27,146 nt of DNA from Dissulfurispiraceae bacterium (GTDB lineage: Bacteria > Nitrospirota > Thermodesulfovibrionia > Thermodesulfovibrionales > Dissulfurispiraceae). The notes beneath the pieces were generated by a model. That model ran no database searches, was not told where the DNA came from, and saw only the letters and a program-made list of their open reading frames with translations. The DNA lies in NCBI GenBank assembly GCA_041477935.1, contig JBGOVD010000001.1:1-27146 (forward strand). The letters are read 5' to 3'. Each line of letters opens with the position of its first letter. Position 1 is the stretch's first letter. Shown here piece after piece: positions 1-13,897 of the stretch. The translations under genes were made by a program, and so were the position numbers.

Positions 1-202
1 CCCAAAGTCTTTATAATGCGATAAGAAACCGTATTCAGTCGCGAATAGTAAAGTTGTCTGCGGACAAGATCCTTTTCATGAAGTAATGGGCGGGTATGAA
101 AATCATCAAAGGTATCGCTATAAAGCCTTTGGGGCATCCCTCCCAATCCTGATTTATGCATTTATCTTATAGCTAACTAGGCTTGTTTCAGGAGGAAATG
201 AT

Positions 203-2284
203 ATGAGGGAAAAGGTTTACAGCGTCTGTTCAATGTGTACTGTACGCTGCCCCATCATGGTAGAAGTGGAGGATGGGGTTGTAAAACATATATGGGGCAA
301 TCCCAACGTGTTGGGCGGAATGTATCTCTGTCCGCGCGGCGCTGCAGGGAAGGCATTTCAGTATGACTCCGAGAGGCCCCAGCGGCCGCTGATCAGGGAC
401 GGAGAGCGGGGTTCGGGAAAGTGGCGCGAGGCCTCCTGGGATGAAGCCCTCGACTATATTGCTACAAAGCTTTCCGAAATAAAAGAGACCTATGGCGCAA
501 AGAGTATCGTGTTGAGCGATCGGGGCGGCCCCATCACGGACTTTGAGAAAACTTTCATTACGGCACTCGGCTCTCCGAATTATTTCAACCACCACGCCTC
601 CTGCTCCAACAGCGTGCACAACGCGCACATGTCGGTTGCCGGGTATGCCCGGAATGGTGTCGGTTATGACTACAAGAACTGCAAGTACATGGTGGTCATG
701 GGACGGAACCTCCTCGAATCGATCGGCACCGGCGAAGCGAAGAATGTCATCGATATGCAGGAGGCAGGCGGCAAGCTGGTATATATCGATGTCCGCTGGA
801 ACTACACTGCGGCAAAGGCCGATAAATTTTTTATCATAAGGCCGGGCACCGACTATGCGCTGACACTCGCCCTGCTGAATGTCATACTCAGGGAAAATCT
901 CTATGACCACGAGTTCGTGAACCGCTGGGTTACCGGCATCGAAGACCTTAAAAAATTTGTGCTTCCTTACACCCCCGAATGGGCGGAGAAGGAAACCGGC
1001 ATATCTGCAAAAGAAATCATGAAGATCGCGCATGAGGCCCATGAGGCGAGTCCGTCTGTAGTTTTCCATCCGGGCTGGATGACGGCCTGGCGCGAGAACG
1101 ACTTTTATTTCAGGCGCATGCTCTATATCCTCAACGCCCTGATGGGAAGCTATGAGGCAAAGGGCGGCATCTTTATCAGCAAATCTCCTGCGGATGCCGG
1201 TGTAAAGTTCAGGACGCTGCTTTCACAAGTCCCGAAGGTGAGCGAGGAGCGCTTCGACGGCTGCGGCACTAAATACCCGCATCTCGGCGCCCAATGGGGT
1301 CTTGCGCAAATGCTGCCTCATGCCATCCTTACCGAGGACCCCTATCCTATCAAGGCATACATCGTCATGAGACACGATCCCCTGGCGTCTTTACCCGATC
1401 CTGAAATATTAAAAGAGGCCCTGATGAAGCTCGATCTGATCGTCTCTATAGATGTCAATTACAGCGAGACCGGATGGGTATCTGACGTTATACTTCCAGA
1501 GTCGACATACCTTGAGAGGACCGACCATGTTTTCGCGAGGACCGGACTGAAACCTTCTCTCGCCTTACGCAGAAAGGCAGTAGAGCCAAGGTTCGACAGT
1601 AAGCCGAGATCGTACATATTTAAGGCCCTGGCGGACAGAATGGGAATCGGCCAGTATTTTCCGTACAACACAATAGAGGAACTTATTGCTTGGCAGCTGG
1701 AAGGAACGGGATTTTCGTTTAAGGATTTCGACAAAACGGGCGTCATAGACCTGGTGAAGCGCCCCATCTGGATGGACCGCAAAGAGGGCCTGAAATTCAA
1801 CACGCCTTCCGGGAAGATCGAGATCATTTCGGGCAAACTCGAAAAGAGCGGGATTCCGTCATTTATCCCTTACGAGAGCCCAAAGAAACCCGATGACGGT
1901 TCTTTCTTCCTTGTTACAAGCAAGACCGCGGTGCATACGCAGGGCCGCACGACCGCGAACAACCCCATCCTGAACGAGATCGTATCCGAAAACCATCTCT
2001 GGATAAACAGCGAAGAAGCAGAGATACTCGGTATCAAGGACGGGGATGTGGTTGAAGTTTCGGCAGAAGGCGTCACACAGACCATAAAAGCCCAGGTCAC
2101 TGATTTCATTCATCCGGAAGCAGTCTTCATGCTCCATGGCTTCGGCGATTCTGTCCATTTAAGGACGCGCTCTTTCAGCAGGGGCGCCAGCGACGTCAAG
2201 CTGCAGAAGGGACTTCTCAAGGTTGCGGTGGGCGGAAATTGCCCGATGACTGAGTGCGTCGTCTCTGTGAGACGAGCGGGCTGA
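203..2284 (+). CDS. Molybdopterin (Mo/W-bisPGD) oxidoreductase catalytic subunit, polysulfide/thiosulfate reductase (PsrA/PhsA)-like, apparently cytoplasmic
   Basis: N-terminal FS0 cluster motif CSMCTVRC...CPRG begins at residue 9. Typical DMSO-reductase-family segments are present (RPQRPLIR...WREASWDEALD, IRPGTDYAL, DVILPESTYLER), plus a C-terminal molybdopterin-dinucleotide domain (VHTQGRT...LWINSEEAEILGIKDGDVVEV). Candidate Mo-ligand Cys in NHHASC resembles PhsA HASTC. No twin-arginine leader. SD AGGAGG at 190-195. Confidence 0.85.
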   Translation: MREKVYSVCSMCTVRCPIMVEVEDGVVKHIWGNPNVLGGMYLCPRGAAGKAFQYDSERPQRPLIRDGERGSGKWREASWDEALDYIATKLSEIKETYGAKSIVLSDRGGPITDFEKTFITALGSPNYFNHHASCSNSVHNAHMSVAGYARNGVGYDYKNCKYMVVMGRNLLESIGTGEAKNVIDMQEAGGKLVYIDVRWNYTAAKADKFFIIRPGTDYALTLALLNVILRENLYDHEFVNRWVTGIEDLKKFVLPYTPEWAEKETGISAKEIMKIAHEAHEASPSVVFHPGWMTAWRENDFYFRRMLYILNALMGSYEAKGGIFISKSPADAGVKFRTLLSQVPKVSEERFDGCGTKYPHLGAQWGLAQMLPHAILTEDPYPIKAYIVMRHDPLASLPDPEILKEALMKLDLIVSIDVNYSETGWVSDVILPESTYLERTDHVFARTGLKPSLALRRKAVEPRFDSKPRSYIFKALADRMGIGQYFPYNTIEELIAWQLEGTGFSFKDFDKTGVIDLVKRPIWMDRKEGLKFNTPSGKIEIISGKLEKSGIPSFIPYESPKKPDDGSFFLVTSKTAVHTQGRTTANNPILNEIVSENHLWINSEEAEILGIKDGDVVEVSAEGVTQTIKAQVTDFIHPEAVFMLHGFGDSVHLRTRSFSRGASDVKLQKGLLKVAVGGNCPMTECVVSVRRAG

Positions 2285-2304
2285 TTCAACAAAGGAGGAT
2301 AAGG

Positions 2305-2814
2305 ATGAGCATTTACTACATATACCAGGACCAGAAAAGATGCATAGGCTGCCGTGCTTGCGAGGTACACTGCAAAACGGAAAATGATGTCCCTGTGGGG
2401 CCGAGATTCGGCAGAATAATTCCCGTGGGGCCGAAGGTGATCGGGAACATCCCGCGCATGAACTTCATATTCATGCCCTGCTTTCATTGCGAGAACCCGT
2501 GGTGCGTATCCGCCTGTCCCACAGGGGCGATGAAGACCAGGTCGAAGGACGGGATAGTCTTTATCGAGCCGGCCCTCTGCGTAGGTTGCAAGGCGTGTAT
2601 TACCGCATGTCCGTGGGGAGTGCCGCAATGGGACGAAGAAACCGGCAAAGTCATTAAGTGCGATTATTGCATGCACCGGATCGACAACGGTTTGCTGCCG
2701 GCATGCGTTAGCGGCTGCACAACGAACGCTCTGCGCTGGGTATCGCCTGAAGAAGCATCCAAGCTGAAGCGGGAAAGGCACGCAAAGGAAATAGCGTCTA
2801 ACCTTCCTTATTAG
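2305..2814 (+). CDS. Four-cluster [4Fe-4S] electron-transfer subunit (PsrB/DmsB/NrfC-like)
   Basis: Motifs CIGCRACEVHC, CFHCENPWCVSACP, CVGCKACITACP and KCDYC...PACVSGC. Start moved from ORF-track 2254 to ATG 2305, which has AAGGAGG upstream and avoids overlap with the previous gene. Confidence 0.9.
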   Translation: MSIYYIYQDQKRCIGCRACEVHCKTENDVPVGPRFGRIIPVGPKVIGNIPRMNFIFMPCFHCENPWCVSACPTGAMKTRSKDGIVFIEPALCVGCKACITACPWGVPQWDEETGKVIKCDYCMHRIDNGLLPACVSGCTTNALRWVSPEEASKLKRERHAKEIASNLPY

Positions 2815-2816
2815 AA

Positions 2817-3620
2817 ATGATCATCATTACCCTCAACGGTAGGGAGAGAGAGTTTGAAGAAGGGACATCGGTACTCGAGGCGGCAAGGCGCGAAGGTATC
2901 GATGTCCCTACGCTCTGTTATCACGAATCTCTCGGCCCCTACGGAGTCTGCAGATTGTGCCTGGTGGAAGCTGAAGGACCAAGCTTCAGACGGACTCTTA
3001 TTCCATCATGCAATCTCAAGGTATCGGAAGGGCTGGTTATAGAGACCAACACCCCCCGCGTCAATGCTGCCAGAAAAAGCATAATGGAATTACTTCTCGC
3101 AAGCACTCCAAACACGGAGCCCCTGCTGAAACTGGCGAAAAAGCTCGGCGTTGAAGGTACGCATTACAAAAGTTCAAAGAGAGACAAGTGTATTCTCTGC
3201 GGTCTCTGTGTACGGGTCTGCCGGATGAAGATCGGTGCGGCGGCGCTTGATTTCGCTACCGATGGAAAGAATGACAGGACGGTTGCAGAATACGTAGCGC
3301 TATCGCAGGACAGATGCATCGGCTGCGGTTCCTGTGCCAATATCTGCCCGATCGGAGTCATCAAGGTCAAGGACAGCGGCGGCCAAAGATATATCTATCT
3401 ATACGCGCAACTGGTCAACACACTCAAACTCGTCAGGTGTGAAAGCTGCGGAGAGCCTTATACGACACAGAAGTTCCTGGATTTCGTGCTCTCACGTCTG
3501 GACAATGAAGTAAGCTCCAGAACAAAGCTGAGGATTTGTCCTGAGTGCTCGCGAGAGTATTATACGATTGCTCTGACAGGACAATTCCCCGTATTTGAGG
3601 AATTCCCTCCGATTTTGTAA
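2817..3620 (+). CDS. NuoG-N-terminus/HoxU/BamI-like iron-sulfur protein ([2Fe-2S] + 2x[4Fe-4S] + C-terminal CxxC..CxxC), copy 1
   Basis: IDVPTLCYH...YGVCRLCLVE...IPSC gives the 2Fe-2S site. Also CILCGLCVRVC, CIGCGSCANICP and C-terminal CESC...CPEC. Starts 2 bp after the previous stop. Confidence 0.85.
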   Translation: MIIITLNGREREFEEGTSVLEAARREGIDVPTLCYHESLGPYGVCRLCLVEAEGPSFRRTLIPSCNLKVSEGLVIETNTPRVNAARKSIMELLLASTPNTEPLLKLAKKLGVEGTHYKSSKRDKCILCGLCVRVCRMKIGAAALDFATDGKNDRTVAEYVALSQDRCIGCGSCANICPIGVIKVKDSGGQRYIYLYAQLVNTLKLVRCESCGEPYTTQKFLDFVLSRLDNEVSSRTKLRICPECSREYYTIALTGQFPVFEEFPPIL

Positions 3621-3628
3621 AAGCGCGA

Positions 3629-4414
3629 ATGATAAACATAGTAATCAATGGCAGGCAAATGGAAGTCGATGAGGGCATAAGCGTTCTTGAAGCAGCAAGG
3701 AACGAGGGAATCGATATCCCGACACTCTGCTATCACAAGGCACTGAAACCGTACGGCGGCTGTAAATTATGCATTGTGGAATCTGAAGGCCCGAATCTCA
3801 GAAAGATGTTGAGGCCGTCCTGCATCCTTAAAGTCTCAGAGGGACTTTCGGTCGAGACTGAATCGCTGCGAATCGCGGCCATGAGAAAAGAACTGCTTTC
3901 GCTCTATCTGTCCTTGGCGCCCCATCCGAGATCATATCTGATCGAGATGGCCGACAAGTATGGCGCGAAGCCTGTTACGCCTGAGGCAGGCGCGGATCTA
4001 TGCTCGCGTTGTACTCTCTGCGTAAGGGTTTGCCGTGAACAAATAGGAGCATCTGCGCTCACCCTTGCCAAGGCAGACGGCCCGGCCGGCGGCGCTTCGC
4101 GTTCCATTCGCTTCATCCGGGAGGCATGTTACGGCGGCGGTACCTGTGCCAGCATCTGCCCTTCGGGTATCTTGCGCATGACGGACAAAGGAGCCGAAAG
4201 GACTATGCTGATCCGTGGAAGGTCTGTCGGGACATTCGAGCTGGCCGAGTGTGAGTCGTGCGGAGCTCACTATATGACCCCGCAATATATCGACAAGGTC
4301 CAATCCCGGCTTTCTGTGGAAGAAGGAAAGATCATAAAAAAGGTCTGCCCCGAGTGTGCGCGCCGTTACTACACCGTCGCATTGACCGGGCGGTTTATCT
4401 GCGGAGAGCATTGA
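3629..4414 (+). CDS. NuoG-N-terminus/HoxU/BamI-like iron-sulfur protein, copy 2 (tandem paralogue)
   Basis: IDIPTLCYH...YGGCKLCIVE...RPSC, CSRCTLCVRVC, CYGGGTCASICP (one Cys replaced by Gly) and CESC...CPEC. Collinear with 2817-3620 over its whole length, including the shared YYT(I/V)ALTG tail. Confidence 0.85.
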   Translation: MINIVINGRQMEVDEGISVLEAARNEGIDIPTLCYHKALKPYGGCKLCIVESEGPNLRKMLRPSCILKVSEGLSVETESLRIAAMRKELLSLYLSLAPHPRSYLIEMADKYGAKPVTPEAGADLCSRCTLCVRVCREQIGASALTLAKADGPAGGASRSIRFIREACYGGGTCASICPSGILRMTDKGAERTMLIRGRSVGTFELAECESCGAHYMTPQYIDKVQSRLSVEEGKIIKKVCPECARRYYTVALTGRFICGEH

Positions 4415-4418
4415 GACA

Positions 4419-6389
4419 ATGAAAAACAGAATATTTAAATACTGGAACGAAACATACTCTGAAGAAACATCGGAACTGAGCCTCGGCGGACAGCGGATCG
4501 CCGCGGTCATCGGATGGGGCGGCATTCAGGTCACGGACCCGCAGCTGGATATCGTCGATCTCTGCTGTAAATATGCTAAGGCTTTGCAGGAGAATTCGTG
4601 CGGCCAATGCAACCCGTGCAGGACCGGAACGAGAGTGCTGGCTGAACTCTTCGAAAAGATAAGAACAGGCCATGGAAATGAAAAAGATATCGAAGATATA
4701 GAGGCACTTTCCAGGACGATCTCCGAAGCTTCGATGTGCGAGATCGGGCAGAGCTCTCCGAGGGTATTGCTCTATCTCCTGGAACACTTCAGGGATTCAT
4801 TCACCGCCGTACTCGATGTCGGCAGCAAGAACGGCAACAGGGAAGCTAATAGACAGTATACATTTCATTCGATGCTTACCGCGCCTTGCATTCAGGCATG
4901 CCCTATGCACCTGGACATTCCGAAATACATTGAAGAAATAAAGGGTGGACGGTTCAGGGAATCGCTCGAATGCATAAAGAGCAGGCTCCCGCTGCCCGGT
5001 ATCGTCGGAAGGGTATGCGTAAGACCCTGCGAATCCAATTGCCGGAGGGGACTCGTTGATGAACCTCTTCAGATACGCCACCTGAAAAGATTCGTGGCCG
5101 ACCATGCACGCGGGTGCCCGGATAGGACAACCGGATGCAGGTCCGGAGTTGAAGATACGGCTACGCAACACGAGCCACTTAAAGTTGCAATAATAGGTGC
5201 AGGCCCTTCTGGTCTCACATGCGCGTCTTTCCTTGCAAAGAAAGGTTATGATGTCACCATCTTCGAAATGCTCACAGAATCGGGCGGCATGGCATCGGTT
5301 GGGATTCCTGACTACCGCCTCCCGCGCGATATAGTTCACGATGAAGTGGCTGAAATAGAGAGACTCGGTGTAAAAATCCTCTATGGAAAGGCCCTCGGCC
5401 CCCATTTCACACTGGAGGACCTCGAAAAAGAGGGCTTCAGGGCGATCTTCATCGGTATGGGCTGCCATTGCCATAAGAGCCTGGACATAGAAGGCGAAGA
5501 TCGCGGATATTACGGGTACGTTCCGGGTGTTTATTTTTTAAAGAATATAAACCTCGGGCTGCTGGACGAAGTTCCGAAAGGGAAGAAGATGGTAGTGGTG
5601 GGCGGAGGAAATGTCGCTATCGATTGTGTGCGAACTGCCTTTCGGGTCGGATTCGATGAGTCACATATCGTTTACCGCAGATCGCGAAAGGAAATGCCTG
5701 CGGACCCCGTGGAGATCGATGATGCCGAGGCTGAGGGTGTGAAATATCATTTTCTCACGGCACCCAAGCGCATCATGGGAGAGAATGGCAAGGTCACGGG
5801 GCTTGAATGCGTCCGTATGGAACTCGGAGAACCGGATGCATCCGGCAGGAGAAGGCCCGTTTTGGTGCCGGGATCCGAATTCGTCATCGAAGCTGATGTG
5901 ATAGTAGCAGCCATTGGCCAGGAAGGTGATTTCAACTGCATGTGCAATCTGCCTGGCGTCGATGTCACCAAGAAGGGAGCAATCATCGTCGATGAAAATC
6001 TGATGACCACGAGAAAGGGCGTCTTTGCCGGGGGTGACTGCGTGACCGGACCTGATGTTCTTATCAGGGCCTGTGCTCACGGAAGGCTTGTCAGCATGGC
6101 TATAGATAAATTTCTGACTGAAGGAAAAACCGAACCACTCGGCGAGGTCCTTGAAGAGAAGTTCCTTGCAGGGTTAAAGGTTTATGATCCCGCCGAATCC
6201 ATCGCGCTTCCTGAAGGCCCCGGACGGGTGGCCGTCAAACATGAACAACCAGCAGAAAGAAAAATTGATTTCCGTGAAGTAGACAAAGGATACTCCGACG
6301 AAGAGGCAGTTTCAGAGGCAACGAGATGCCTGCGATGCTATCGCCTTGTAATGTATGCCTGCTCCGACGATGCGTCATCTCATGCCTGA
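4419..6389 (+). CDS. NAD(P)H-dependent Fe-S flavoprotein: N-terminal NuoF-type [4Fe-4S] domain fused to a GltD/SudA/SfrB-type FAD module
   Basis: SCGQCNPCRTG...ASMCEIG is the NuoF-type cluster domain. PCIQACP...GRVCVRPCESNC is the GltD-type cluster domain. FAD Rossmann VAIIGAGPSGL; pyridine nucleotide Rossmann VVVGGGNVAIDC followed by YRRSR (NADPH-type basic motif); FAGGDCVTGP; C-terminal EATRCLRC. Confidence 0.85.
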   Translation: MKNRIFKYWNETYSEETSELSLGGQRIAAVIGWGGIQVTDPQLDIVDLCCKYAKALQENSCGQCNPCRTGTRVLAELFEKIRTGHGNEKDIEDIEALSRTISEASMCEIGQSSPRVLLYLLEHFRDSFTAVLDVGSKNGNREANRQYTFHSMLTAPCIQACPMHLDIPKYIEEIKGGRFRESLECIKSRLPLPGIVGRVCVRPCESNCRRGLVDEPLQIRHLKRFVADHARGCPDRTTGCRSGVEDTATQHEPLKVAIIGAGPSGLTCASFLAKKGYDVTIFEMLTESGGMASVGIPDYRLPRDIVHDEVAEIERLGVKILYGKALGPHFTLEDLEKEGFRAIFIGMGCHCHKSLDIEGEDRGYYGYVPGVYFLKNINLGLLDEVPKGKKMVVVGGGNVAIDCVRTAFRVGFDESHIVYRRSRKEMPADPVEIDDAEAEGVKYHFLTAPKRIMGENGKVTGLECVRMELGEPDASGRRRPVLVPGSEFVIEADVIVAAIGQEGDFNCMCNLPGVDVTKKGAIIVDENLMTTRKGVFAGGDCVTGPDVLIRACAHGRLVSMAIDKFLTEGKTEPLGEVLEEKFLAGLKVYDPAESIALPEGPGRVAVKHEQPAERKIDFREVDKGYSDEEAVSEATRCLRCYRLVMYACSDDASSHA

Positions 6390-6852
6390 CAAAGAAATAT
6401 CCAGATACCAGGCTGCAAAGGCATCCGGGATGAAGACTATTCTCTTCGTCTGTTCCGGAAATTCGATCCGCTCACAGATTGCCGAAGGTATCGTAACCCA
6501 TTTATTCGGGAAGGAATGGGCGGCTTTTTCGGCAGGCACGATGCCGATGCCGGTACCGAAGGACCTTGTGAAAGTAATGAGCGAAATCGGCATAGACATA
6601 AGCAACCGGAAAGGGAAACATGTCGGCGCATTCAAAGACTGTACCTTCGACAGGGTAGTCGTGCTCTGCTCCGACGTAGACAGGATGTGTCCCGTCCTTC
6701 CGGAATGCGCGGAGCAGGAGCGTATTTTTTTCCACGACCCTCTGTCGTCAGCCATGGCGTCGGAGGGGTTTTTCATCAACTTCAAATCATCATATCGACA
6801 GCTTAGAGACGAGATGAGAAAAGTGCTTACTCACTATATGAAGGAAACATGA
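6382..6852 (+). CDS. arsC: ArsC-type arsenate reductase / low-molecular-weight phosphatase family protein (thioredoxin-coupled type)
   Basis: P-loop LFVCSGNSIRSQIAEG (CX5R), resolving pair LCSDVDRMCP (C-X6-C) and DP motif (FHDP). Start uncertain: ATG 6382 overlaps the upstream stop (ATGCCTGA); ATG 6430 (MKTILF) is the alternative. Arsenate versus phosphatase substrate cannot be decided from sequence. Confidence 0.7.
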   Translation: MPDKEISRYQAAKASGMKTILFVCSGNSIRSQIAEGIVTHLFGKEWAAFSAGTMPMPVPKDLVKVMSEIGIDISNRKGKHVGAFKDCTFDRVVVLCSDVDRMCPVLPECAEQERIFFHDPLSSAMASEGFFINFKSSYRQLRDEMRKVLTHYMKET

Positions 6853-6853: not shown

Positions 6854-9800
6854 ATGAACAAGCTCCTGGGCATTTTTTCAAAGGGCGGAAGATGTCCGTC
6901 GCTGAAGGCGGCCCAGGGTGCTGCTGCTAAGAAATACGCCTCTTTCAAAATCTTGCTCAACCATAATCACGCGGCTCTCGATGCCATAGCCGATATGGAG
7001 AATCTTTATTACTCAGGCAACCCGTTCAGCTTGACATCCGTAAGGATAAAGTATGAGGAACTTCTCGAGGCCGTCACCGGGGTTATCATCGCTCTTGAAA
7101 CTCTCTCAGGGAAGGATTATCACGCATTATCCGATATTATGTCGGGTATCGACAGCGAGCTTTTCCGGGACTTCAATCCCAAGTGCGCGCTACCGGTCGG
7201 CAACCTCGTCATAGGGCTTGATGAAATCACCGACGACATATATCGCATGATCGGCGCGAAGGCCGCAAACCTGGCATCCATTAAAAACGTTCTGGGCCTG
7301 CCCGTCCCGCCGGGATTCGTCATTACCTCACTGGCCTTCGAACGCTTCCTGAAATTTCACAAATTGCTGAAACCAATAAAAGAAGAATTATCGCTTGTCA
7401 CCTCGGAATCGATTGAGGCGATAGAACGAGCCGGCGACCGGCTGCGCAAGATGATACTCGACGCCCCGGTTCCTCCTGAGATACGAACTGAGATTATGAC
7501 GGCCTATTCAACTCTTGAGGAGACCGCCGGAAAAGGCGTGCGCATCGCCATGAGAAGCAGCGCTGTCGGCGAAGACACAGAAGCGACCTTCGCAGGCCAG
7601 TATGATACGGTCCTCAATGTGACCGGCGAAAACATACTGGACGCATACAAGACTGTCCTCGCAAGTAAATATTCAGCAAGAGCTATTGCATACCGGCTAC
7701 ATTACGGGCTTGACGACCGCGAGACGCCGATGTGCGTCCTTGGGATAGTGATGATCGATTCGAAAGCGAGCGGCGTCCTCTACTCGGTCGACCCTTCCCT
7801 GACCCGCTCCTGCCCTGTGAGGATCAACTCCATCTGGGGGATAGGCGAGCACCTTGTCGACGGAAGCGCTTCTCCCGACGTCTTCATCATTGACCGGATC
7901 GATGAGAAGATCATCGAAAAGCATATTGAGGGAAAGGCATCGAGACTGGTGAATCTTCGTGCCGGAGGCACAGGCATTGAATCTGTCCCGGAACATCAAC
8001 GCCACCTTCCTTCCATAGATGACCGAACGATCATACAGCTGACAAGGGACGGCCTGCTGCTGGAGGAATTTTTTGAAGGCCCGCAGGACGTGGAATGGGC
8101 AGTTGATGAGGAAGACAGGGTATTCATACTTCAATCAAGACCTCTCCTTCTTCCGGAAATGACCGCGGCCCCGCAACAGCCTCCGGTCTCTTACGCCAAT
8201 CCCGTTCTCCTTTCGCAGGGCAAGACCGCCTCCGGCGGGATCGCAACCGGAAGGGTCTTCATACTGGAGAAGGAGTGCGACCTTCTGAATCTTCCTGCGG
8301 ATGCAATACTTGTCGCCAAGATCGCCTCGCCCGATTATGCCAAAGTAATCGGACGGATAAAGGGCATCATCACGGATATCGGAAGCGTAACGAGCCACAT
8401 GTCATCCGTAGCCAGGGAGTTCGGCATACCTTCAATTGTAGATACCGGCAATGCTACAACATCATTGACGCACGGCGAGATCGTCACGATGTCGGCGGAC
8501 ACCGTTACTGTATATAGTGGCATCATCGAAGAACTCGCGAGTGAAATCAGGCCCGCGAAAAAGGTGATCTTCGACAGCCCTTTGCACCGCAGGATGCGCG
8601 GAATTCTCGATCGCATTTCCGTCCTGAACCTCACCGATATAAAAGCTGAATCATTTTCCCCGGAAGGATGCCGGACATACCACGACATAGTGCGTTTCAC
8701 CCATGAAACAGCAATACAGGAAATGTTCGGCATCTCTCTCGCATCGGAGCGGAGCGGCGCGTCGGTCAAGCTGACATCGACTCTTCCTCTTGATCTCTGG
8801 CTGATTGACCTTGGAGAAGGTCTCAGAGACGGCCTGACGACATGCGACAAGGTTACACCAGAAATGATCGACTCCTCCCCGATGAAGGCTGTCTGGAGGG
8901 GCTTTACTCATCCCGGAGTGAGCTGGGCCGGCACCATGAATATCGGTACCGGCAAAATATCCGGCATGCTCGCAGCGTCGGCCCTCTCGGAATTCGGAGA
9001 GATCGCAGGTGGGGAGAGCTATGCCTTGCTGTCACGTGACTATCTAAACCTCAGCGTACGCTTCGCCTACCACTTTGCGACTATCGACACCCTTTGCAGC
9101 GATAATGCATCACAGAACTATATATCCCTCCAGTTTTCAGGAGGGGCCGGGGATTATTACGGCCGCTCGCTTAGAATCCAGCTTATGGGACACATCCTTG
9201 AGAGGCTCGGCTTTCGGACCACAATTAAGGGCGATCTCCTTGAGGCATTCATGGCACGATACGATAAAAGATCGACTGAGGAAAAGCTCGACATGGCCGC
9301 CAGGCTGCTGGCCTCCACGCGGCTTCTCGATATCACGCTCTCTAACCAGGATGAATTGGCAGGACTGACCGAGACTTTTCTTAACGGCTCCTACGATTTT
9401 CTCGCCGGCAAGACGGACAATGCACTGCCTAACCTCTACCTTCGCAGCGGACACTGGACGCTTTCAGTTGAAGACGGCCGCACCTGTTGCCTTCAGGACG
9501 GCTCCAGGTGGGGCAGACGGATAGCGTCCGGGATTTCAGGATTTATGGGGAAGGTCGCAGGCGGCACGTATCATGAATTTCTCGATACCATCGAAGCCTA
9601 CCATTATTTCCCGATGGCCATTCTCAGGAACCTGGAACTTTCGGAAGGGACAATACGCGTAAATATCAAGCCGATGGCCGGTAACATCGACAGAGCAGGC
9701 GGCATAGCCTTCGGCGTCAGGGACGTCGACAACTACTTCGTTTTAAGGACCAATGCACTTGAGGGCAATATCATTCTTTTCGAATATATTAACGGAAGAA

Positions 9801-10036
9801 GAATCGAGAAGCGTATCGTAAGAAAGAAGATCGAGACCGGAAAATGGCATAACCTCCGCGTCGATATTTCAGGGCATGACATAAAAGGCTATCTAAATGG
9901 AGAGTTGCTGATGAAGCATGACGCAGGGAGATCGTTGAAAGGGTATATCGGTCTCTGGACCAAAGCGGATTCCGTTACGTGCTTCGATAATTTGACCATC
10001 GAATCAGATGGCCGCCGCGAAGTTATCGGGTTTTAA
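6854..10036 (+). CDS. PEP-synthase/PPDK-like phosphohistidine protein: ATP-grasp + His-swivel domain + atypical C-terminal domains (no pyruvate-binding TIM barrel)
   Basis: PPDK_N motifs IGAKAANL, LPVPPGFVIT, AMRSSAVGED...FAGQYDT, SGVLYS and DVEWA...FILQSRP. Swivel domain TDIGSVTSHMSSVAREFGIP with His515 (codon 8396-8398). The C-terminal ~200 aa look like a concanavalin/DUF1080-type beta-sandwich (AGGIAFG..D.DNYF; KWHNLRV; GYIGLW; FDNL). Confidence 0.8.
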   Translation: MNKLLGIFSKGGRCPSLKAAQGAAAKKYASFKILLNHNHAALDAIADMENLYYSGNPFSLTSVRIKYEELLEAVTGVIIALETLSGKDYHALSDIMSGIDSELFRDFNPKCALPVGNLVIGLDEITDDIYRMIGAKAANLASIKNVLGLPVPPGFVITSLAFERFLKFHKLLKPIKEELSLVTSESIEAIERAGDRLRKMILDAPVPPEIRTEIMTAYSTLEETAGKGVRIAMRSSAVGEDTEATFAGQYDTVLNVTGENILDAYKTVLASKYSARAIAYRLHYGLDDRETPMCVLGIVMIDSKASGVLYSVDPSLTRSCPVRINSIWGIGEHLVDGSASPDVFIIDRIDEKIIEKHIEGKASRLVNLRAGGTGIESVPEHQRHLPSIDDRTIIQLTRDGLLLEEFFEGPQDVEWAVDEEDRVFILQSRPLLLPEMTAAPQQPPVSYANPVLLSQGKTASGGIATGRVFILEKECDLLNLPADAILVAKIASPDYAKVIGRIKGIITDIGSVTSHMSSVAREFGIPSIVDTGNATTSLTHGEIVTMSADTVTVYSGIIEELASEIRPAKKVIFDSPLHRRMRGILDRISVLNLTDIKAESFSPEGCRTYHDIVRFTHETAIQEMFGISLASERSGASVKLTSTLPLDLWLIDLGEGLRDGLTTCDKVTPEMIDSSPMKAVWRGFTHPGVSWAGTMNIGTGKISGMLAASALSEFGEIAGGESYALLSRDYLNLSVRFAYHFATIDTLCSDNASQNYISLQFSGGAGDYYGRSLRIQLMGHILERLGFRTTIKGDLLEAFMARYDKRSTEEKLDMAARLLASTRLLDITLSNQDELAGLTETFLNGSYDFLAGKTDNALPNLYLRSGHWTLSVEDGRTCCLQDGSRWGRRIASGISGFMGKVAGGTYHEFLDTIEAYHYFPMAILRNLELSEGTIRVNIKPMAGNIDRAGGIAFGVRDVDNYFVLRTNALEGNIILFEYINGRRIEKRIVRKKIETGKWHNLRVDISGHDIKGYLNGELLMKHDAGRSLKGYIGLWTKADSVTCFDNLTIESDGRREVIGF

Positions 10037-10079
10037 CTCCGGGATAAACTTACCAGCTCTAGGCTGCTCATGCGAACCT

Positions 10080-10088
10080 TGGTATAAT
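10080..10088 (+). promoter_or_regulatory. Extended -10 sigma70-type promoter (TGnTATAAT) for trxB
   Basis: TGGTATAAT in the intergenic gap after the stop at 10036 is a perfect TATAAT plus the TG extension. No convincing -35 box. Confidence 0.6.
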
Positions 10089-10094
10089 TGCGTA

Positions 10095-11048
10095 ATGAGA
10101 GTTACAGATATGACAGCTAAAGATACCTATGAGGTGATAATCATCGGAGGAGGACCTGCCGGGCTTACGGCAGGACTCTATTGCAAGAGGGCCGCAATGA
10201 AAACGGTCCTGTTCGAAAAGGGATTGATCGGCGGCCAGATAGCCATTTCGAAAGATGTGGAGAACTATCCCGGCATGGAGGGCATAACCGGTTTCGATCT
10301 GGCTGAAAAACTGCTTCATCAGACCCAGACCTTCAACCTGCCTATCGTCCAGCAAACAGTTTCAGAAATAATCGTCGGCCCTGACCTTCACTCAGTCAGG
10401 CTCGACAATGGCGACCTGCTAAACAGTGTTGCCCTTATCCTGGCTGCGGGCGGCTCGGTGCGAAAACTGGGAATCCCCGGCGAAGCTGAATATCTCGGGA
10501 CCGGCGTTTCCTATTGCGCGACCTGCGACGGCTTCTTTTTCAGGGACAAAACCGTCGTCGTTATCGGCGGCGGGGACACAGCAGTTGAAGAGGCCCTCTA
10601 TCTGGCACGACTGACGCGCAAGGTGCGCCTTATTCACAGAGGCAATGCCCTGCGGGCAAGCAAAATACTTCAGGATCGCCTGATGAGCGAGCCCAGGATC
10701 GAAATAATCTGGGATACAGTCATCTCCGAAATCAAGGGAAGCGGAAGCGCCGTGAATGCCGTCTCCTTCGAAAATACCAGGACCGGGGAAAGGGGAGAAT
10801 TGCCGACGGAAGGAGTGTTCATCTTCATAGGGTATTCTCCGAACAATCAATTGATACCGGCAGCAGTCAGAATGGACGATCGCGGCTTTATAATTACCGA
10901 TGAAAAATGTGAGACGAATGTGCCGGGTATTTTTGCGGTCGGAGATTTGAGACATAAGTTCGCCAACCAGATCGTAGTCGCAGCAGCTGACGGCTGCGTG
11001 GCTGCGCTGGCATCCGCTCACTATGTGGAGTTGCATAAAACCGGATAA
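10095..11048 (+). CDS. trxB: Thioredoxin-disulfide reductase
   Basis: VIIIGGGPAGLTAG, GGQI, active site GVSYCATCDGFF, VIGGGDTAVEEA, GVFIFIG and TNVPGIFAVGD. The ORF-track start at 10008 overlaps the upstream gene; the likely start is ATG 10095 or 10110. Confidence 0.92.
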   Translation: MRVTDMTAKDTYEVIIIGGGPAGLTAGLYCKRAAMKTVLFEKGLIGGQIAISKDVENYPGMEGITGFDLAEKLLHQTQTFNLPIVQQTVSEIIVGPDLHSVRLDNGDLLNSVALILAAGGSVRKLGIPGEAEYLGTGVSYCATCDGFFFRDKTVVVIGGGDTAVEEALYLARLTRKVRLIHRGNALRASKILQDRLMSEPRIEIIWDTVISEIKGSGSAVNAVSFENTRTGERGELPTEGVFIFIGYSPNNQLIPAAVRMDDRGFIITDEKCETNVPGIFAVGDLRHKFANQIVVAAADGCVAALASAHYVELHKTG

Positions 11049-11318: not shown

Positions 11319-11339
11319 CACTAGTGTCCGACAGGTTTC
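11319..11339. repeat. IS terminal inverted repeat (transposase 3' side)
   Basis: CACTAGTGTCCGACAGGTTTC; matches the reverse complement of 12617-12637 at 18/21 positions. Confidence 0.85.
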
Positions 11340-12498
11340 ATAACAAAATCAGTTGGTTGCCGTTATCATTCTCATTTTGATCCGGTACCATATCTGTAAG
11401 CAGTTGAAGCACTGGTGTTTTTTCGAACGGAGTCACGCTCAGGATTTGTAACATCGAATGCAAAGACAGATCAAGTTTCATACGCTTTTTGACAATGGCT
11501 ACCAGCACGTACGTGGCTACGGCGATCCACACTTGTGTCTTGACGGCATTCTCCGAAGTGCCGAAGAAGCGCTTGATACGAAGGTGCTGCTTGATCCATT
11601 TGAAGAAGAGTTCCACCTGCCAGCGACTTTTGTAGAGGGCGCAGATGGTCAACGCTGGAAGCGTGGTGTTGTTGGTAAGAAACACCAAGCGCCTGCCTTC
11701 CGGGTCCGTGTAGCGTATACGTCTGAGCCGTTCGGGATAGGCTTGTTGAGAGTAGAAAACCACAAGCTCGACCAGTTGGTCGCACATCAGGCCGGTGCTT
11801 CGATCTACCGGATTGGAATAGACGCGACGGAACTTGGAGTTGGACTTGGCTCGGGTTACAAAGAAGCTGCCTGCTTGATGCAAGCGGTAGAGCCGCTCGA
11901 AGTCGAGATAGCCGCGGTCCATCACATAGAAAGCGCCTGGTTCTGGCACGAGCAAATCCAGAACGTTGACATCGTGCATCTTGCCGTCGCTGATATGGAT
12001 GAAAGTTGGAATGGCGCCTCGCAAATCGAGAAGGGTATGCAGTTTCACCGCAGCCTTTGTTTTGCGAAACTCGGCCCAGGGAAACAACTTCAGACATAGA
12101 TCGACTGTGGTGGAATCCAGCGCATAGACTGTTTCCGAAAGGTCGACGGCCAAAGGTTCGTTGGCATAAAGCCGTCGGGCAATGCGGATAAGCGCTTGCG
12201 CAAATTCGAAATAGATTCGCCAGTCTCGGGTTTCGTTGGCGTCGGCTATAGCACTGCGACTGACCTTGCCACGAATGCCCAAGTGATAGAGTTTCGCGGA
12301 CTGGGAACGCAGGCAGGCCTCGATGTCCCGCAGACTCTCCCTGTAAGTCAGTTGGGCAAAAGCCATGCATAGAAACTGGTCCAAGCAGCTGAAGCTGCGT
12401 ACGTTGAAGTCGCCGCAATGCTTCTCCACCGCGCGGCGAAAAGTATGCCATGGTGCAAATTCCATCACTTGGGCGAAGACGAGTTTGCCAGCGAACAT
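11338..12498 (-). CDS. IS4-family DDE transposase
   Basis: N-terminal MFAGKLVFAQ. Catalytic motifs YALDSTT (D), YVMDRGY (D) and YKSRWQVELFFKWIKQ (Y-2-R-3-E-6-K signature of the IS4 family). ATG at 12498 has SD GGGAGG 5 nt upstream. Frame uninterrupted. Confidence 0.92.
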   Translation of the reverse strand: MFAGKLVFAQVMEFAPWHTFRRAVEKHCGDFNVRSFSCLDQFLCMAFAQLTYRESLRDIEACLRSQSAKLYHLGIRGKVSRSAIADANETRDWRIYFEFAQALIRIARRLYANEPLAVDLSETVYALDSTTVDLCLKLFPWAEFRKTKAAVKLHTLLDLRGAIPTFIHISDGKMHDVNVLDLLVPEPGAFYVMDRGYLDFERLYRLHQAGSFFVTRAKSNSKFRRVYSNPVDRSTGLMCDQLVELVVFYSQQAYPERLRRIRYTDPEGRRLVFLTNNTTLPALTICALYKSRWQVELFFKWIKQHLRIKRFFGTSENAVKTQVWIAVATYVLVAIVKKRMKLDLSLHSMLQILSVTPFEKTPVLQLLTDMVPDQNENDNGNQLILL

Positions 12499-12616
12499 GA
12501 GCACCTCCCGGATATGTCCGGAAAGCCTGACTGAAAACCGCTGTCTCGTTCAAGTCGTTAACACTCATAAAAGCCGTGGAAGTAGCGCCAATGTAAGGTT
12601 TCAAGGAAATAACCCC

Positions 12617-12693: not shown

Positions 12694-13701
12694 ATGGGTA
12701 ACGATGAGCCGTCAGTCCATCCCAAGGTCCCGCCGATAGTCGGCGCTTCTCCGTCCATCAAGCGTATTTATAATTTGATTTCAAAAGTTTCTCAGTCGAA
12801 CAGCACTGTTCTGGTACTTGGCGAAAGCGGCACCGGCAAGGAGCTGGTTGCCAAGACGATCCATTACAGCAGTAAGAGAGCGGCTAAAAACTTTATCCCT
12901 GTCAATTGCGGCGCAATCCCTGCGGAACTCCTCGAATCCGAGCTATTCGGGCATGAAAAGGGCGCATTTACCGGCGCCATAGCATCCCGCACCGGACGTT
13001 TCGAGCTCGCCGACGGCGGCACGGTATTCCTTGACGAAATCGGCGAGATGTCACCGATGCTGCAGGTAAAGCTCCTAAGGGTCCTCCAGGAAAGGTCTTT
13101 TGAGCGGATAGGGGGGAGCAAGACCGTAAATGTCGATGTGCGGGTTATCTCGGCAACAAACCAGAACCTTGAAGAGGCAGTAAAGACGGGTAGATTCAGG
13201 GAAGACCTCTATTACCGTATAAATGTCATCCCGATAGAGATTCCGCCATTGCGGGAACGGACCGAAGACCTGCCGCTCCTGTGCGATTTTTTCATGGAAA
13301 AGCACGCCATGCGTTTCGAGCGCGCTCCGTTGAAAATTTCGGGTGAGGCGCTTCGGGCGTTTATGGATTATGGATGGCCTGGTAACGTGAGGGAACTCGA
13401 AAATACGCTCGAAAGGCTGCTGGTGCTCAAAGATGACGATGTTGTCACGCCTTACGACCTTTCGGAAAAAATGACAGGCAAAAAACTTCCGGCGCTTCCT
13501 GAGATCGACGACCCTAGCGATGATCCGGATGTCAATCCCTTCGTCCAGGGGATCGATCTCAATTCAGCGCTTGTCGAATACGAAAAGAGGCTTTTGCTTC
13601 ACGCCCTTCAGATCCACGGGAGAGTGAAAAGCCAGGCTGCGAAGTATCTGAATATTAACAGGACTACCCTTATCGAAAAGATGAAGAGACTTGGCCTTTA
13701 A
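12694..13701 (+). CDS. sigma54 enhancer-binding protein, FleQ/FlrA-like (AAA+ and HTH only, no N-terminal regulatory domain)
   Basis: Walker A GESGTGKE, VNCGAIPAELLESELFGHEKGAFTGA, Walker B FLDEIG, FREDLYYR, WPGNVRELEN and HTH ending RTTLIEKM (FleQ-like recognition helix). An in-frame TAA at 12649-12651 rules out an N-terminal extension. Confidence 0.85.
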   Translation: MGNDEPSVHPKVPPIVGASPSIKRIYNLISKVSQSNSTVLVLGESGTGKELVAKTIHYSSKRAAKNFIPVNCGAIPAELLESELFGHEKGAFTGAIASRTGRFELADGGTVFLDEIGEMSPMLQVKLLRVLQERSFERIGGSKTVNVDVRVISATNQNLEEAVKTGRFREDLYYRINVIPIEIPPLRERTEDLPLLCDFFMEKHAMRFERAPLKISGEALRAFMDYGWPGNVRELENTLERLLVLKDDDVVTPYDLSEKMTGKKLPALPEIDDPSDDPDVNPFVQGIDLNSALVEYEKRLLLHALQIHGRVKSQAAKYLNINRTTLIEKMKRLGL

Positions 13702-13753
13702 TCCGGACTATCATGGGTTGTCCTGAGATGGCCGGGGATGTTCTACCGTCTCA

Positions 13754-13767: not shown

Positions 13768-13842
13768 TAAATTATATTTACCAAGATGCCGGAAGGCCGC
13801 CTTATTATGAAAAACATCGATAAAACAGGGCGATACGATTGA

Positions 13843-13858: not shown

Positions 13859-13897
13859 ACATATATTTGGAAAAGGCATGCCTCATGGAGGGCCTGT

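Follow-up and report, generated by a model that had tools for sequence, protein, structure and literature searches.

Gene organization of a candidate soluble molybdoenzyme complex

A locus on the plus strand of a 27,146-nucleotide stretch of DNA from a Dissulfurispiraceae bacterium (the window) raised the question of how a Psr/Phs-type molybdoenzyme with neither a Tat leader nor a quinol anchor would be supplied with electrons, and for which reaction. ORF calling placed five genes, all on the plus strand, within positions 203-6389 with intergenic gaps of 20, 2, 8 and 4 bp, which reproduced the layout given in a first-pass annotation made from the sequence. The second gene was taken to start at the ATG at 2305, and a GTG at 2254 was likewise open. 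Promoter-like and terminator-like sites within the five-gene block were no commoner than in shuffled sequence. The sequencing runs holding the locus were DNA runs only, except for one RNA run with 0.06 of the sampled words. The membrane anchor had been noted as missing, and a scan in 19-residue windows agreed: no helix-like window was obtained in any of the five proteins, while the TauE and NuoH controls scored clearly.

A leaderless PsrA-like subunit and its PsrB-like partner

The first gene (ORF1, 203..2284, plus strand, 693 aa) was assigned from Pfam, NCBIfam and solved relatives as a leaderless PsrA/PhsA-like Mo(W)-bisPGD catalytic subunit. It carries the Molybdop_Fe4S4, Molybdopterin and Molydop_binding domains, and its top NCBIfam model was PhsA, with a score of 563.7 bits that missed the equivalog cut-off of 694; the Fdh-alpha, DmsA and ArrA models scored far lower (256, 207 and 145 bits). 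The closest solved relative was Thermus PsrA (2vpw, E 1.8e-111, 376.6 bits), whose Mo-ligand Cys173 aligned with C134 of ORF1, a residue invariant in 47 sequences. The PhsA alignment began at profile position 42, i.e. beyond the leader, and an AGGAGG ribosome-binding site lies directly 5′ of the ORF1 ATG. Since the first of the FS0 cysteines (C9, C12, C16 and C43) is already residue 9 and only 10 in-frame codons separate the ATG from the preceding stop, no leader fits ORF1, as the first-pass annotation had proposed.

In the phylogeny, the split between leaderless and Tat-exported Psr/Phs enzymes received a support of 100/100. All 35 members of the ORF1 clade were leaderless, in line with the cytoplasmic location suggested earlier, and an RR leader was present in 12/12 Tat-type relatives. 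The catalytic subunit fell as sister to the Tat-exported enzymes, outside the Fdh and acetylene-hydratase clades; on sequence grounds, the PsrA/PsrB pair is a member of a monophyletic leaderless sister clade.

ORF2 (2305..2814, plus strand, 169 aa) matched Pfam Fer4_11 and, as top NCBIfam model, DmsB, and was assigned as a PsrB-like electron-transfer subunit, a four-[4Fe-4S] ferredoxin of the DmsB/PsrB type; its 16 Cys in four cluster motifs were all invariant across 33 orthologs. The best structural and HMM matches of the pair, PsrABC of Thermus thermophilus (PDB 2VPW-2VPZ) and PhsABC of Salmonella, share its catalytic fold, FS0 motif, Cys Mo ligand (C134/C173) and four-cluster PsrB. However, the window complex has neither their Tat leader nor their NrfD/PsrC quinol anchor, and ORF1 shares some 35-39% identity with the Tat-exported forms.

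Thermus PsrA and the PhsA model are the best characterised relatives of the PsrA-like head. Arg332 of Thermus PsrA, which we take to be an active-site residue, aligned with Trp292 of ORF1, and the leaderless clade has conserved residues of its own, so that the substrate may differ from that of Thermus PsrA. We agree with the earlier view that the substrate cannot be read from the sequence.

Two Fe-S adaptors downstream of PsrB

ORF3 (2817..3620, plus strand, 267 aa; adaptor 1) and ORF4 (3629..4414, plus strand, 261 aa; adaptor 2) are paralogs with 47% mutual identity, both carrying Pfam Fer2_4 and dicluster ferredoxin domains of HoxU/NuoG-N-like type. They had been described as two NuoG-N-like Fe-S proteins. 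Two Fe-S adaptors are indeed present, but the nearest relative is WorA, and the His-ligated H-x3-C-x2-C-x5-C motif of NuoG-type N-terminal domains was absent from both, as it is from WorA.

Adaptor 1, with sites for a [2Fe-2S] cluster and two [4Fe-4S] clusters and a C-terminal Cys4 site, found its best full-length solved match in WorA (9mqx_A, E 1.2e-40), the 247-aa subunit of the tungsten aldehyde oxidoreductase WorABCSL of Acetomicrobium mobile (PDB 9MQX; PMC12318220). The clusters of WorA are one [2Fe-2S] and two [4Fe-4S], the third [4Fe-4S] (A3) being absent; the protein ends in a Cys4 zinc finger, and its C-terminus recruits a polyferredoxin subunit (PMC12318220). The four C-terminal Cys of the adaptors correspond to this zinc finger. 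Fifteen of the 16 Cys of adaptor 1 were invariant in a 96-row family alignment (C34/45/48/65, C125/128/131/135, C167/173/177 and C208/211/241/244), and the sixteenth, C170, was replaced by Gly only in the adaptor-2 type. The partners differ: WorA serves a bifurcating BfuBC (NuoEF-like, FMN) core and a tungstopterin WOR, whereas the window adaptors accompany a GltD-type NADPH flavoprotein and a Mo-bisPGD Psr-type enzyme.

When PsrB and adaptor 1 were modelled together, PsrB docked on the adaptor with an ipSAE of 0.74, against 0.00 for the best control; among 80 solved complexes 58 attained this value, and among 110 mismatched pairs 2. The modelled contact involves residues 66-75 and 90-106 of PsrB, around the C71/C92/C95/C98 motifs (distal clusters), and the C-terminal Cys4 region of adaptor 1, the same region as the WorA C-terminus. 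Adaptor 1 thus occupies, in the model, the PsrB end that would otherwise bind PsrC, an arrangement that resembles WorA with WorS and may echo that solved complex.

Adaptor 2 has one three-Cys cluster site. Gly replaces Cys170, and C258 is an additional C-terminal Cys; both changes were also found in counterparts from two other genomes (L004 and P0205). Adaptor 1 is the copy retained in single-adaptor relatives.

An NADPH-binding Fe-S flavoprotein

ORF5 (4419..6389, plus strand, 656 aa) was assigned from Pfam, motifs and structure matches as an NADPH-binding Fe-S flavoprotein. Its Pfam domains are NADH_4Fe-4S (residues 49-130, the NuoF C-terminal domain), Fer4_20 (141-231) and Pyr_redox_2 (255-555, GltD). 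Residues 26-132 matched the cluster-bearing C-terminal domain of NuoF/HydB/HoxF, and residues 154-648 the GltD module of the StnC/NfnA-type proteins 9bov_A, 9n5u_A and 8oh5_C. Among 101 homologs, C61/64/67/107, the FAD motif GAGPSG (260) and the NADPH motif GGGNVA (395) were invariant or nearly so, as were, without exception, Y419, R420 and R421 of the YRRSR motif (residues 419-423); the NuoF-cluster/GltD flavoprotein with an NADPH-type YRRSR that had been read from this gene was thereby recovered. Homologs are named 'formate dehydrogenase (NADP+) beta subunit' in the source databases, and, judged by sequence, ORF5 is of the SfrB / NADP-formate-dehydrogenase beta type.

In SfrAB of Geobacter sulfurreducens and the NADP-dependent FdhAB of Moorella, a cytoplasmic Mo/W enzyme is fed by a beta subunit in which a NuoF-type [4Fe-4S] domain and a GltD-type NADPH/FAD module are fused. 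ORF5 has the same build, so NADPH-fed Mo/W enzymes are of an already known kind. In those enzymes, however, the catalytic subunit is of the Fdh type and carries a fused NuoG-like Fe-S domain, in place of one or two free-standing adaptors and a PsrA/PsrB pair. The nearest solved GltD-type modules, those of the StnABC/NfnABC transhydrogenase (PDB 8OH5, 9N5U, 9BOV; E 1e-98 to 1e-113), are likewise joined to NuoG-like and NuoF-like Fe-S domains, but there the module is one part of a 960-1180 aa fusion subunit that works with an FMN-containing NuoF-like partner; the window has neither an FMN domain nor NuoE.

A 'cytoplasmic PhsAB-like' enzyme is under discussion in genome and proteome papers (PMC13490349, PMC9751629, PMC5165239), represented by Dissulfuribacter thermophilus DITHS69_2027/2028, Desulfolithobacter dissulfuricans GF1_30490/30500 and Thermodesulfovibrio N1 THER_0567/0568. 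Like those of the window, these Psr/Phs-type proteins are leaderless and have no C subunit, and their published descriptions suggest orthology. In thiosulfate-disproportionating Dissulfuribacter, PhsAB-like subunits without Tat leader or PhsC showed log2 fold changes of 2.45 and 3.51 (PMC13490349). The surveyed Thermodesulfovibrio-group genomes (48-50% identical) carried the PsrAB-plus-Nuo arrangement described in PMC5165239. These papers name no donor or a Nuo link only, and the adaptor and NADPH-flavoprotein module appears in none. The earlier remark that no characterised enzyme of this exact composition was known is refined by NADPH-fed Mo/W enzymes being a known kind and by 'cytoplasmic PhsAB-like' proteins having already been discussed.

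Gene neighbourhoods in relatives

The core in relatives was (Usp)-TauE-TauE-PsrA-PsrB, and after PsrB came one of several interchangeable electron modules: a complex-I-like pump of 11 subunits that lacks NuoEFG, attached to the PsrAB head in 14 of 29 informative relatives; NuoEF with a HoxU-like protein; or, as in the window, one or two HoxU/WorA-like adaptors with an SfrB/FdhB-type NADPH flavoprotein. The head faces the cytoplasm in relatives with either of the first two. No genome with a match had more than one leaderless PsrA copy, which suggests that the modules are alternatives.

The PsrAB/HoxU-like/GltD-like gene order was kept in at least six other genomes, across different PsrA sub-lineages; it recurred at loci L004, L011, L031, L036 and L033, and as a fusion at L008. 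Along with the PsrB-adaptor 1 model, this order supports the link to NAD(P)H over a long Fe-S wire put forward in the first-pass annotation. In the relatives, the genes upstream of psrA encode Usp and a pair of TauE permeases but no NrfD, which upholds the absence of a quinol anchor; of 34 relatives, 26 have the TauE pair beside psrA. The pair of this genome closes contig C170, is oriented outward and possibly joins the window start. The genome (80% complete) carries dsrAB and three or four NuoD-like genes, and aprA was not found in it.

Proposed reaction and alternative readings

We consider it rather probable that the products of the five genes form a single soluble complex in the cytoplasm, with NADPH-driven cleavage of thiosulfate or polysulfide/persulfide sulfur as its most likely reaction. 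The Psr/Phs-type Mo (or W) bis-pyranopterin subunit, with one FS0 cluster and Cys134 as metal ligand, would be seated on four-cluster PsrB. The WorA/HoxU-like adaptor would replace PsrC there, via its C-terminal Cys4 region and second ferredoxin cluster, and its [2Fe-2S] end would meet the N-terminal NuoF-type [4Fe-4S] domain of the flavoprotein, in the way that NuoG contacts NuoF in complex I. Two GltD-type [4Fe-4S] clusters would lead on to the FAD and the NADPH site, so that about 14 Fe-S clusters might join NADP(H) to the Mo site. Thiosulfate (or polysulfide/persulfide sulfur) and NADPH would yield sulfide inside the cell, and from thiosulfate also sulfite, the anion probably being moved by the TauE-type permease pair encoded beside the operon. 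Thiosulfate reduction, with a quoted E0′ of -402 mV (PMC13490349), is uphill from NADPH (-320 mV) at standard conditions and requires low product levels. In sulfur-disproportionating and sulfate-reducing bacteria, the cytoplasmic thiosulfate reductase may be encoded by operons of this type, which makes the present one a testable candidate.

The main rival, which we regard as unlikely though worth weighing, is the same complex reversed, a cytoplasmic sulfite dehydrogenase oxidizing sulfite to sulfate and reducing NADP+; in relatives the same head would feed the proton-pumping complex-I-like module. At an E0′ of about -516 mV for the sulfate/sulfite couple, NADP+ reduction and forward proton pumping are both exergonic, and the frequent pump on the head, the membership of TauE in a sulfite/sulfonate-exporter family and the failure to find aprA point the same way. 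The nearest characterised relatives, PsrA and PhsA, nevertheless cleave S-S bonds reductively (SoeABC, the known cytoplasm-facing sulfite dehydrogenase, lay outside the comparison). PhsAB-like proteins were also more abundant in thiosulfate disproportionation than with sulfite plus H2 (PMC13490349).

It seemed improbable that the Mo enzyme works on another oxyanion (arsenate, selenite/selenate or tetrathionate), serving detoxification or assimilation as an NADPH-driven reductase in the cytoplasm. Directly 3′ of the block lies a thioredoxin-type ArsC homolog (probable start 6430) in which the CX5R loop is present and the two distal Cys align with those of pI258 ArsC, a gene for thioredoxin reductase lies at 10008-11048, and the ArsC link recurs in L036 and L033; Psr-like enzymes are moreover known to be recruited for other substrates. 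Yet this link was confined to three loci of one family, other GltD-type clusters having other neighbours, the arsenite pump and ArsR were both absent from the window, and the model scores were 145 bits for ArrA, whose cut-off is 1600, and 57 bits for TtrA.

We gave slightly less credence to the genes being mere neighbours, with PsrAB served by another partner (e.g. a complex-I-like module elsewhere) and the adaptors and flavoprotein forming an NADPH:ferredoxin-type oxidoreductase. Gaps of 2-20 bp, internal promoter or terminator signals not above chance, co-linearity held in several genomes despite differing PsrA lineage (55% vs 82% identity) and the PsrB-adaptor model all argue for the single complex, even though most members of the large flavoprotein family are annotated as formate-dehydrogenase partners, L007 and L037 have PsrAB without an adjacent module, and several NuoD-like genes are at hand.

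Least probable was flavin-based electron bifurcation or confurcation, in which the GltD-type FAD would split NADPH electrons, one branch per adaptor paralog, and a low-potential acceptor such as thiosulfate, itself below NADPH, would be reduced alongside a second, higher-potential one. In its favour, the bifurcating site of NfnSL is a GltD-type FAD (PMC12318220), and two paralogs are present, the second with a conserved unusual three-Cys site. On the other side, one adaptor suffices in most relatives, the block lacks NfnS-like, BfuB (FMN) and BfuC subunits as well as a second catalytic site, and in GltD and dihydropyrimidine dehydrogenase the GltD-type module acts as a simple linear wire. The two-adaptor arrangement itself was seen only in the window, in L004 and probably in the contig with P0129 and P0205.

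Organization of the five-gene operon

The source genome is a 2.3-Mb assembly of 394 contigs and about 80% completeness, and the window is one entire contig of it. Five genes on the forward strand make up the operon: psrA (203-2284; MopB catalytic subunit with Pfam domains PF04879, PF00384 and PF01568), psrB (2305-2814; a Fer4_11 four-cluster ferredoxin by Pfam/NCBIfam), the genes of adaptor 1 (2817-3620, 267 aa) and adaptor 2 (3629-4414, 261 aa), both Fer2_4 plus dicluster proteins, and a flavoprotein gene (4419-6389) whose product joins a NuoF C-terminal [4Fe-4S] domain to a GltD module. The intergenic gaps of 20, 2, 8 and 4 bp claimed in the first-pass annotation were reproduced from the ORF coordinates. 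Promoter-like and terminator-like sites were not commoner in the five-gene block than in shuffled sequence; a sigma-54 promoter scan of positions 1-260 returned none, and an Rfam search of positions 1-400 gave no match. Among the relatives, a sigma-54 site with one mismatch was seen in one locus only (L030), directly upstream of the universal stress protein gene (usp). The sequencing runs containing the locus were of sediment and soil DNA; one RNA run contained just 0.06 of the sampled words.

The catalytic pair belongs to a leaderless Psr/Phs-type clade

The placement of PsrA was based on HMM scores, PDB scores and a tree of leaderless and Tat-type relatives. Against the NCBIfam PhsA equivalog (NF012032) it scored 563.7 bits where the curated cut-off is 694 (a six-frame search of the genome gave 485 bits), and the profile alignment began at profile position 42, beyond the leader; the models for Fdh-alpha, DmsA, ArrA and TtrA gave 256, 207, 145 and 57 bits. 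The closest solved structure was Thermus thermophilus PsrA (2vpw, E 1.8e-111), the next being acetylene hydratase (2.6e-55), so that by HMM and PDB scores the subunit falls outside the formate dehydrogenase and acetylene hydratase groups, one of which might have claimed it. These two identities were rejected at 256 and 191 bits, respectively, against 564 for PhsA and 377 for PsrA.

In common with the respiratory PsrABC/PhsABC enzymes, PsrA has the FS0 [4Fe-4S] motif (C9-x2-C12-x3-C16...C43), all three MopB domains and the Mo-ligand position of Thermus PsrA; C134 pairs in the alignment with Cys173 of 2vpw and did not vary among the 47 sequences aligned, 35 of them leaderless and 12 of Tat type. 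PsrB has 16 cysteines in four cluster motifs, every one of them invariant across 33 orthologs. When the active sites of leaderless and Tat-type enzymes were compared, R107, D392 and H637 came out as specific to the leaderless clade and pointed to no particular substrate, which agrees with the earlier statement that the substrate could not be read from sequence.

The respiratory enzymes carry a Tat leader on the A subunit and a NrfD/PsrC anchor, whereas the window operon has neither. The first cysteine of PsrA is residue 9, preceded by 8 residues, which agrees with the claimed start at the FS0 motif without an RR leader, and just ten in-frame codons separate the upstream stop from the ATG. A Tat leader was absent in 35/35 extracted clade members, while all 12 relatives at 35-39% identity had a leader of the form S/T-RR-x-F-L/I-K; in a maximum-likelihood tree of these leaderless and Tat-type relatives, the two groups split with support of 100/100. 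None of the five proteins contained a membrane-helix-like segment, as had been anticipated, and the TauE and NuoH controls were clearly hydrophobic.

No gene for a NrfD/PsrC-type quinol subunit was found in the window, and none adjoined any mapped relative locus, upstream or downstream; the sole NrfD gene of the genome sits on a separate contig (C45). Because the window and its contig start at the same base, the upstream context was read through the relatives and through the end of another contig of the same genome, C170. The membrane anchor that might have been encoded just upstream did not appear in the relatives' loci, where psrA is often preceded instead by usp and a pair of TauE/TSUP permease genes, one long and one short. 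Contig C170 carries such a pair (the long gene product 73% identical to that of locus L029), facing outward and ending about 90 bp from the contig end, and for this reason it probably adjoins the window start.

Homologs at 47-82% identity were found in Dissulfurispiraceae, other Nitrospirota, Caldimicrobium, Thermodesulfobium, Desulfomonile, Syntrophobacteraceae and uncultured Desulfobacterota. Clusters above about 42% identity were few among the 50%-identity representatives, and these mostly started at the FS0 motif. A match was present in 33 of 301 sampled genomes of the phylum, with one leaderless copy apiece, and in 15/23 genomes of the organism's own family.

The adaptors and the flavoprotein form a candidate NADPH-linked module

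Adaptor 1 has 16 cysteines, 15 of which were invariant in a 96-row family alignment; the remaining one, Cys170, was replaced by Gly only in two rows of the adaptor-2 type. The predicted sites are a [2Fe-2S] cluster (C34, C45, C48, C65), two ferredoxin-type [4Fe-4S] clusters (C125, C128, C131, C135 and C167, Cys170, C173, C177) and a C-terminal CxxC...CxxC (Cys4) site (C208, C211, C241, C244), and the protein lacks the His-ligated cluster motif H-x3-C-x2-C-x5-C. Its top solved match, over the full length, was chain A of 9MQX (247 aa, E 1.2e-40), which is WorA of the tungsten enzyme WorABCSL. WorA was reported to hold a [2Fe-2S] cluster A1 and [4Fe-4S] clusters A2 and A4, with no A3, and its C-terminus forms a zinc finger on four cysteines and recruits the polyferredoxin WorS (PMC12318220). 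On these features adaptor 1 would belong with the WorA/HoxU-like small NuoG-type adaptors. The two adaptors are 47% identical; adaptor 2 is a conserved paralog, sharing the Cys170-to-Gly change and an additional C-terminal cysteine with its counterparts in two other genomes, and relatives with a single adaptor retain the adaptor-1 type.

The flavoprotein (PF10589, PF14691 and PF07992) matches the cluster-bearing C-terminal domain of NuoF/HydB/HoxF at residues 26-132, and at residues 154-648 the GltD modules of StnC/NfnA-type subunits (9bov, 9n5u, 8oh5), NfnI and glutamate synthase. The cluster cysteines C61/64/67/107 are invariant, and the GAGPSG motif for FAD, the GGGNVA and YRR motifs for NADPH and a C-terminal CxxC are invariant or nearly so. 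The YRRSR motif of NADPH type, noticed at the outset, was located at residues 419-423, with Y419, R420 and R421 invariant across 101 homologs. By its NuoF C-terminal [4Fe-4S] domain and its GltD module with FAD and NADPH sites, the protein is of the SfrB or NADP-FDH beta type; source databases name its homologs 'formate dehydrogenase (NADP+) beta subunit'. The SfrB/FdhB architecture occurs in Geobacter SfrAB and Moorella NADP-FDH.

A single complex prediction was run with our own alignments for adaptor 1 and flavoprotein residues 1-250, with PsrB as the scored partner. PsrB docked with an ipSAE of 0.74, and the best of three controls scored 0.00; in the calibration of the tool the mark of 0.74 was reached by 58/80 solved complexes and 2/110 mismatched pairs, counts that apply here only roughly. 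On adaptor 1 the confidently modelled interface takes in the second ferredoxin cluster (residues 134-140 and 170-176) and the Cys4 region (residues 216-254), and on the PsrB side residues 66-75 and 90-106, around C71/C92/C95/C98. By the usual wiring of four-cluster ferredoxins, this region would hold the distal cluster, which faces PsrC in PsrABC. The model supports, rather than demonstrates, binding of PsrB to adaptor 1, and it may in part reflect the interface already solved for WorA and WorS; the contact between adaptor and flavoprotein would follow from the relationship of NuoG to NuoF.

Redox modules are exchanged around PsrAB in relatives

Gene neighbourhoods were surveyed with Pfam-annotated contexts and a tblastn map of 35 loci, window included. 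The conserved core often begins with usp, after which come two TauE/TSUP permeases (the first about 420 aa, the second 129 aa), PsrA and PsrB, and the permease pair was adjacent in 26/34 relatives. At 14 loci, from Thermodesulfobium, Caldimicrobium, the Thermodesulfovibrio group and Dissulfurispiraceae, the accompanying module is an 11-subunit complex-I-like set (NuoB, D, I, A, C, H, J, K, L, M and N) with no NuoEFG. One or two HoxU-like proteins with a NuoF-cluster/GltD flavoprotein were present at seven loci, namely the window, L004, L011, L031, L036 and L033, and in fused form L008, so the proposed gene set does recur beyond the window. CBS, NuoE, NuoF and a HoxU-like protein follow PsrB at three loci (L030, L043, L046), and only a NuoD-like plus NuoI-like pair at two (L034, L039); three loci (L007, L037, L009) have no module adjoining PsrB, and six were uninformative (L006, L038, L040, L041 and L045 at contig ends, and L032 unresolved). 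The module types are interspersed on the PsrA tree, the Nuo type by itself requiring at least six changes, and the family Dissulfurispiraceae alone contains all four types. It is a clear case of redox modules swapped round a fixed catalytic head, including a molybdoenzyme in place of the NADH-oxidising module of complex I.

The pair of a NuoD-like protein (about 400 aa, Complex1_49kDa) and a NuoI-like ferredoxin follows PsrB with no other Nuo gene alongside in L030 (12612-14383), L033, L034 (8605-10358) and L039, and some of these pairs are then followed by soluble NuoEF-HoxU or GltD modules; it would be unusual for the complex-I Q-module pair to serve in soluble form. In L008 (12636-14615), a locus of an uncultured deltaproteobacterial MAG, one fused protein of 659 aa comes after PsrAB and is a compact NADPH module made of a GltD-type flavoprotein without the NuoF-type domain and a C-terminal ferredoxin domain.

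The locus L036, from a genome of the same genus (G226), is syntenic with the window (TauE pair, PsrAB, one adaptor, flavoprotein, ArsC, PEP-synthase-like protein). Identity between the two was 75% for the flavoprotein and 70% for ArsC but only 55% for PsrA; the window PsrA is closer to that of another genus (82%; L004 of genome G288) and to that of a 'Chloroflexota' MAG (79%). The catalytic subunit thus seems to have been exchanged inside a conserved operon frame.

All parts of the operon are of known kinds: a Psr/Phs head, a WorA-type adaptor and an SfrB-type NADPH subunit. In SfrAB and the NADP+-dependent FdhAB, the alpha subunit joins a NuoG-like part at its N-terminus to an Fdh-type MopB domain, whereas here the NuoG-like part is carried by separate proteins of 267 and 261 aa and the catalytic subunit is of Psr type with its own PsrB. 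BfuABC is built on a core of BfuB (NuoF with the FMN domain, PF01512) and BfuC (NuoE, PF01257), and neither domain occurs in the five proteins; both occur in the alternative modules of L030, L043 and L046. SoeABC combines a SoeA-type catalytic subunit with the NrfD-like anchor SoeC, whereas the window operon has no NrfD-type gene. Published work already discusses the leaderless PhsAB-like clade; our literature search found no description of the five-subunit composition, nor the idea that interchangeable NADPH, NADH or complex-I-like modules supply the donor of this clade.

Proposed function and energetics

Thiosulfate and sulfur disproportionation and the cytoplasmic thiosulfate reduction of sulfate reducers are major steps of the anoxic sulfur cycle that are enzymatically unresolved, and recent proteomics picked out a PhsAB-like enzyme without a leader as the likely first step (PMC13490349, PMC9751629). 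In Dissulfuribacter thermophilus disproportionating thiosulfate, leaderless PhsAB-like subunits without PhsC were up by log2 2.45 and 3.51, and the pair was proposed to split thiosulfate in the cytoplasm, its donor and membrane association being unknown there (PMC13490349). Desulfolithobacter has PhsAB without the C subunit, with locus tags immediately preceding Nuo subunits that were detected only under thiosulfate disproportionation; according to the authors, no functional analysis of any PhsAB exists (PMC9751629). In Thermodesulfovibrio N1, PsrAB is attached to a Nuo cluster without NuoEFG (PMC5165239).

The operon combines a leaderless, anchor-less Psr/Phs-type enzyme with adaptors and an NADPH-type flavoprotein in conserved order beside an anion permease, and dsrAB is present in the genome. 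In the reading we prefer, electrons from NADPH would pass through the complex to the sulfur of thiosulfate or polysulfide. The potential of NADPH is -320 mV. That of thiosulfate is quoted as -402 mV (PMC13490349). Thiosulfate reduction by NADPH would be uphill at standard conditions and would become feasible with low sulfite and sulfide.

The main rival reverses this logic, with sulfite oxidation reducing NADP+ or driving a complex-I-like pump; at about -516 mV sulfite oxidation agrees with the energetics, as it does with the TauE family name, but this direction is at odds with the nearest characterised relatives. Less likely are an arsenic or selenium substrate for the Mo enzyme, the absence of a single complex, and electron bifurcation. 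A joint reading would have the leaderless PsrAB as a universal plug-in head of anaerobic sulfur metabolism, re-wired repeatedly by evolution to a complex-I-like proton pump, an NADH module or an NADPH module, with the two adaptors as a branched wire and the GltD-type FAD bifurcating NADPH electrons to drive very low-potential thiosulfate cleavage without proton-motive force. [quoted passage not shown]

The operon is real, widespread, uncharacterised and directly testable. The candidate donors for it and its relatives, each testable, are NADPH through the WorA-like adaptor and SfrB-type flavoprotein, NADH through NuoEF, and quinol plus proton-motive force through the complex-I-like module; purification and assay should be much simpler for the soluble five-subunit form than for the variants bound to the membrane.

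Remaining genes of the contig and a repeat at its start

An ArsC homolog (6355-6852, probable start 6430) of the thioredoxin-type, low-molecular-weight phosphatase family immediately follows the flavoprotein gene, a link also seen in L036 and L033. Its CX5R loop (C33...R39) and distal C105 and C112 align with pI258 ArsC, and it scored 83 bits against an NCBIfam cut-off of 174. The next gene (6854-10036) encodes a 1060-aa protein that shares ATP-grasp and mobile His domains with PEP synthase/PPDK but has no PEP/pyruvate-binding barrel; its C-terminal part of about 490 aa, for which all matches in an Atlas look-up were under 0.8, ends in a lectin/3-keto-disaccharide-hydrolase-like domain, and a protein 71% identical occupies the same position in the same-genus genome. 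A thioredoxin-disulfide reductase gene (10008-11048; TIGR01292, 360 bits, over the cut-off) overlaps the end of this PEP-synthase-like gene by 29 bp, and together with ArsC suggests a thiol-based redox unit adjoining the molybdoenzyme operon. An IS4-family transposase gene (11338-12504, minus strand; DUF4372 plus DDE_Tnp_1) lies between these redox genes and a regulatory and flagellar region (12694-27146), which begins with a sigma-54 activator without receiver domain, a TPR protein, a histidine kinase and an NtrC-type regulator and continues with the flagellar operon flgB, flgC, fliF, fliG, fliH, fliI, fliJ, fliK, flgD and flgE.

At the other end, window positions 1-155 belong to an interspersed repeat of about 170-190 bp, with further copies on other contigs of the genome (C334:581-731, C77:3271-3423 and C192:631-775; 77-86% identical) and fragments on C50, C124 and C8. 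Since the window contig starts inside its left arm, the repeat is the probable cause of the break in the assembly that separates psrA from the TauE pair of contig C170. It gave no Rfam match, and the C334 copy is intergenic. The ends are mutually reverse-complementary: one carries GGGAGGGATGCCCCAAAG and the other its reverse complement, CTTTGGGGCATCCCTCCC. A second imperfect palindrome makes up the interior, and the element resembles a MITE or a large hairpin.
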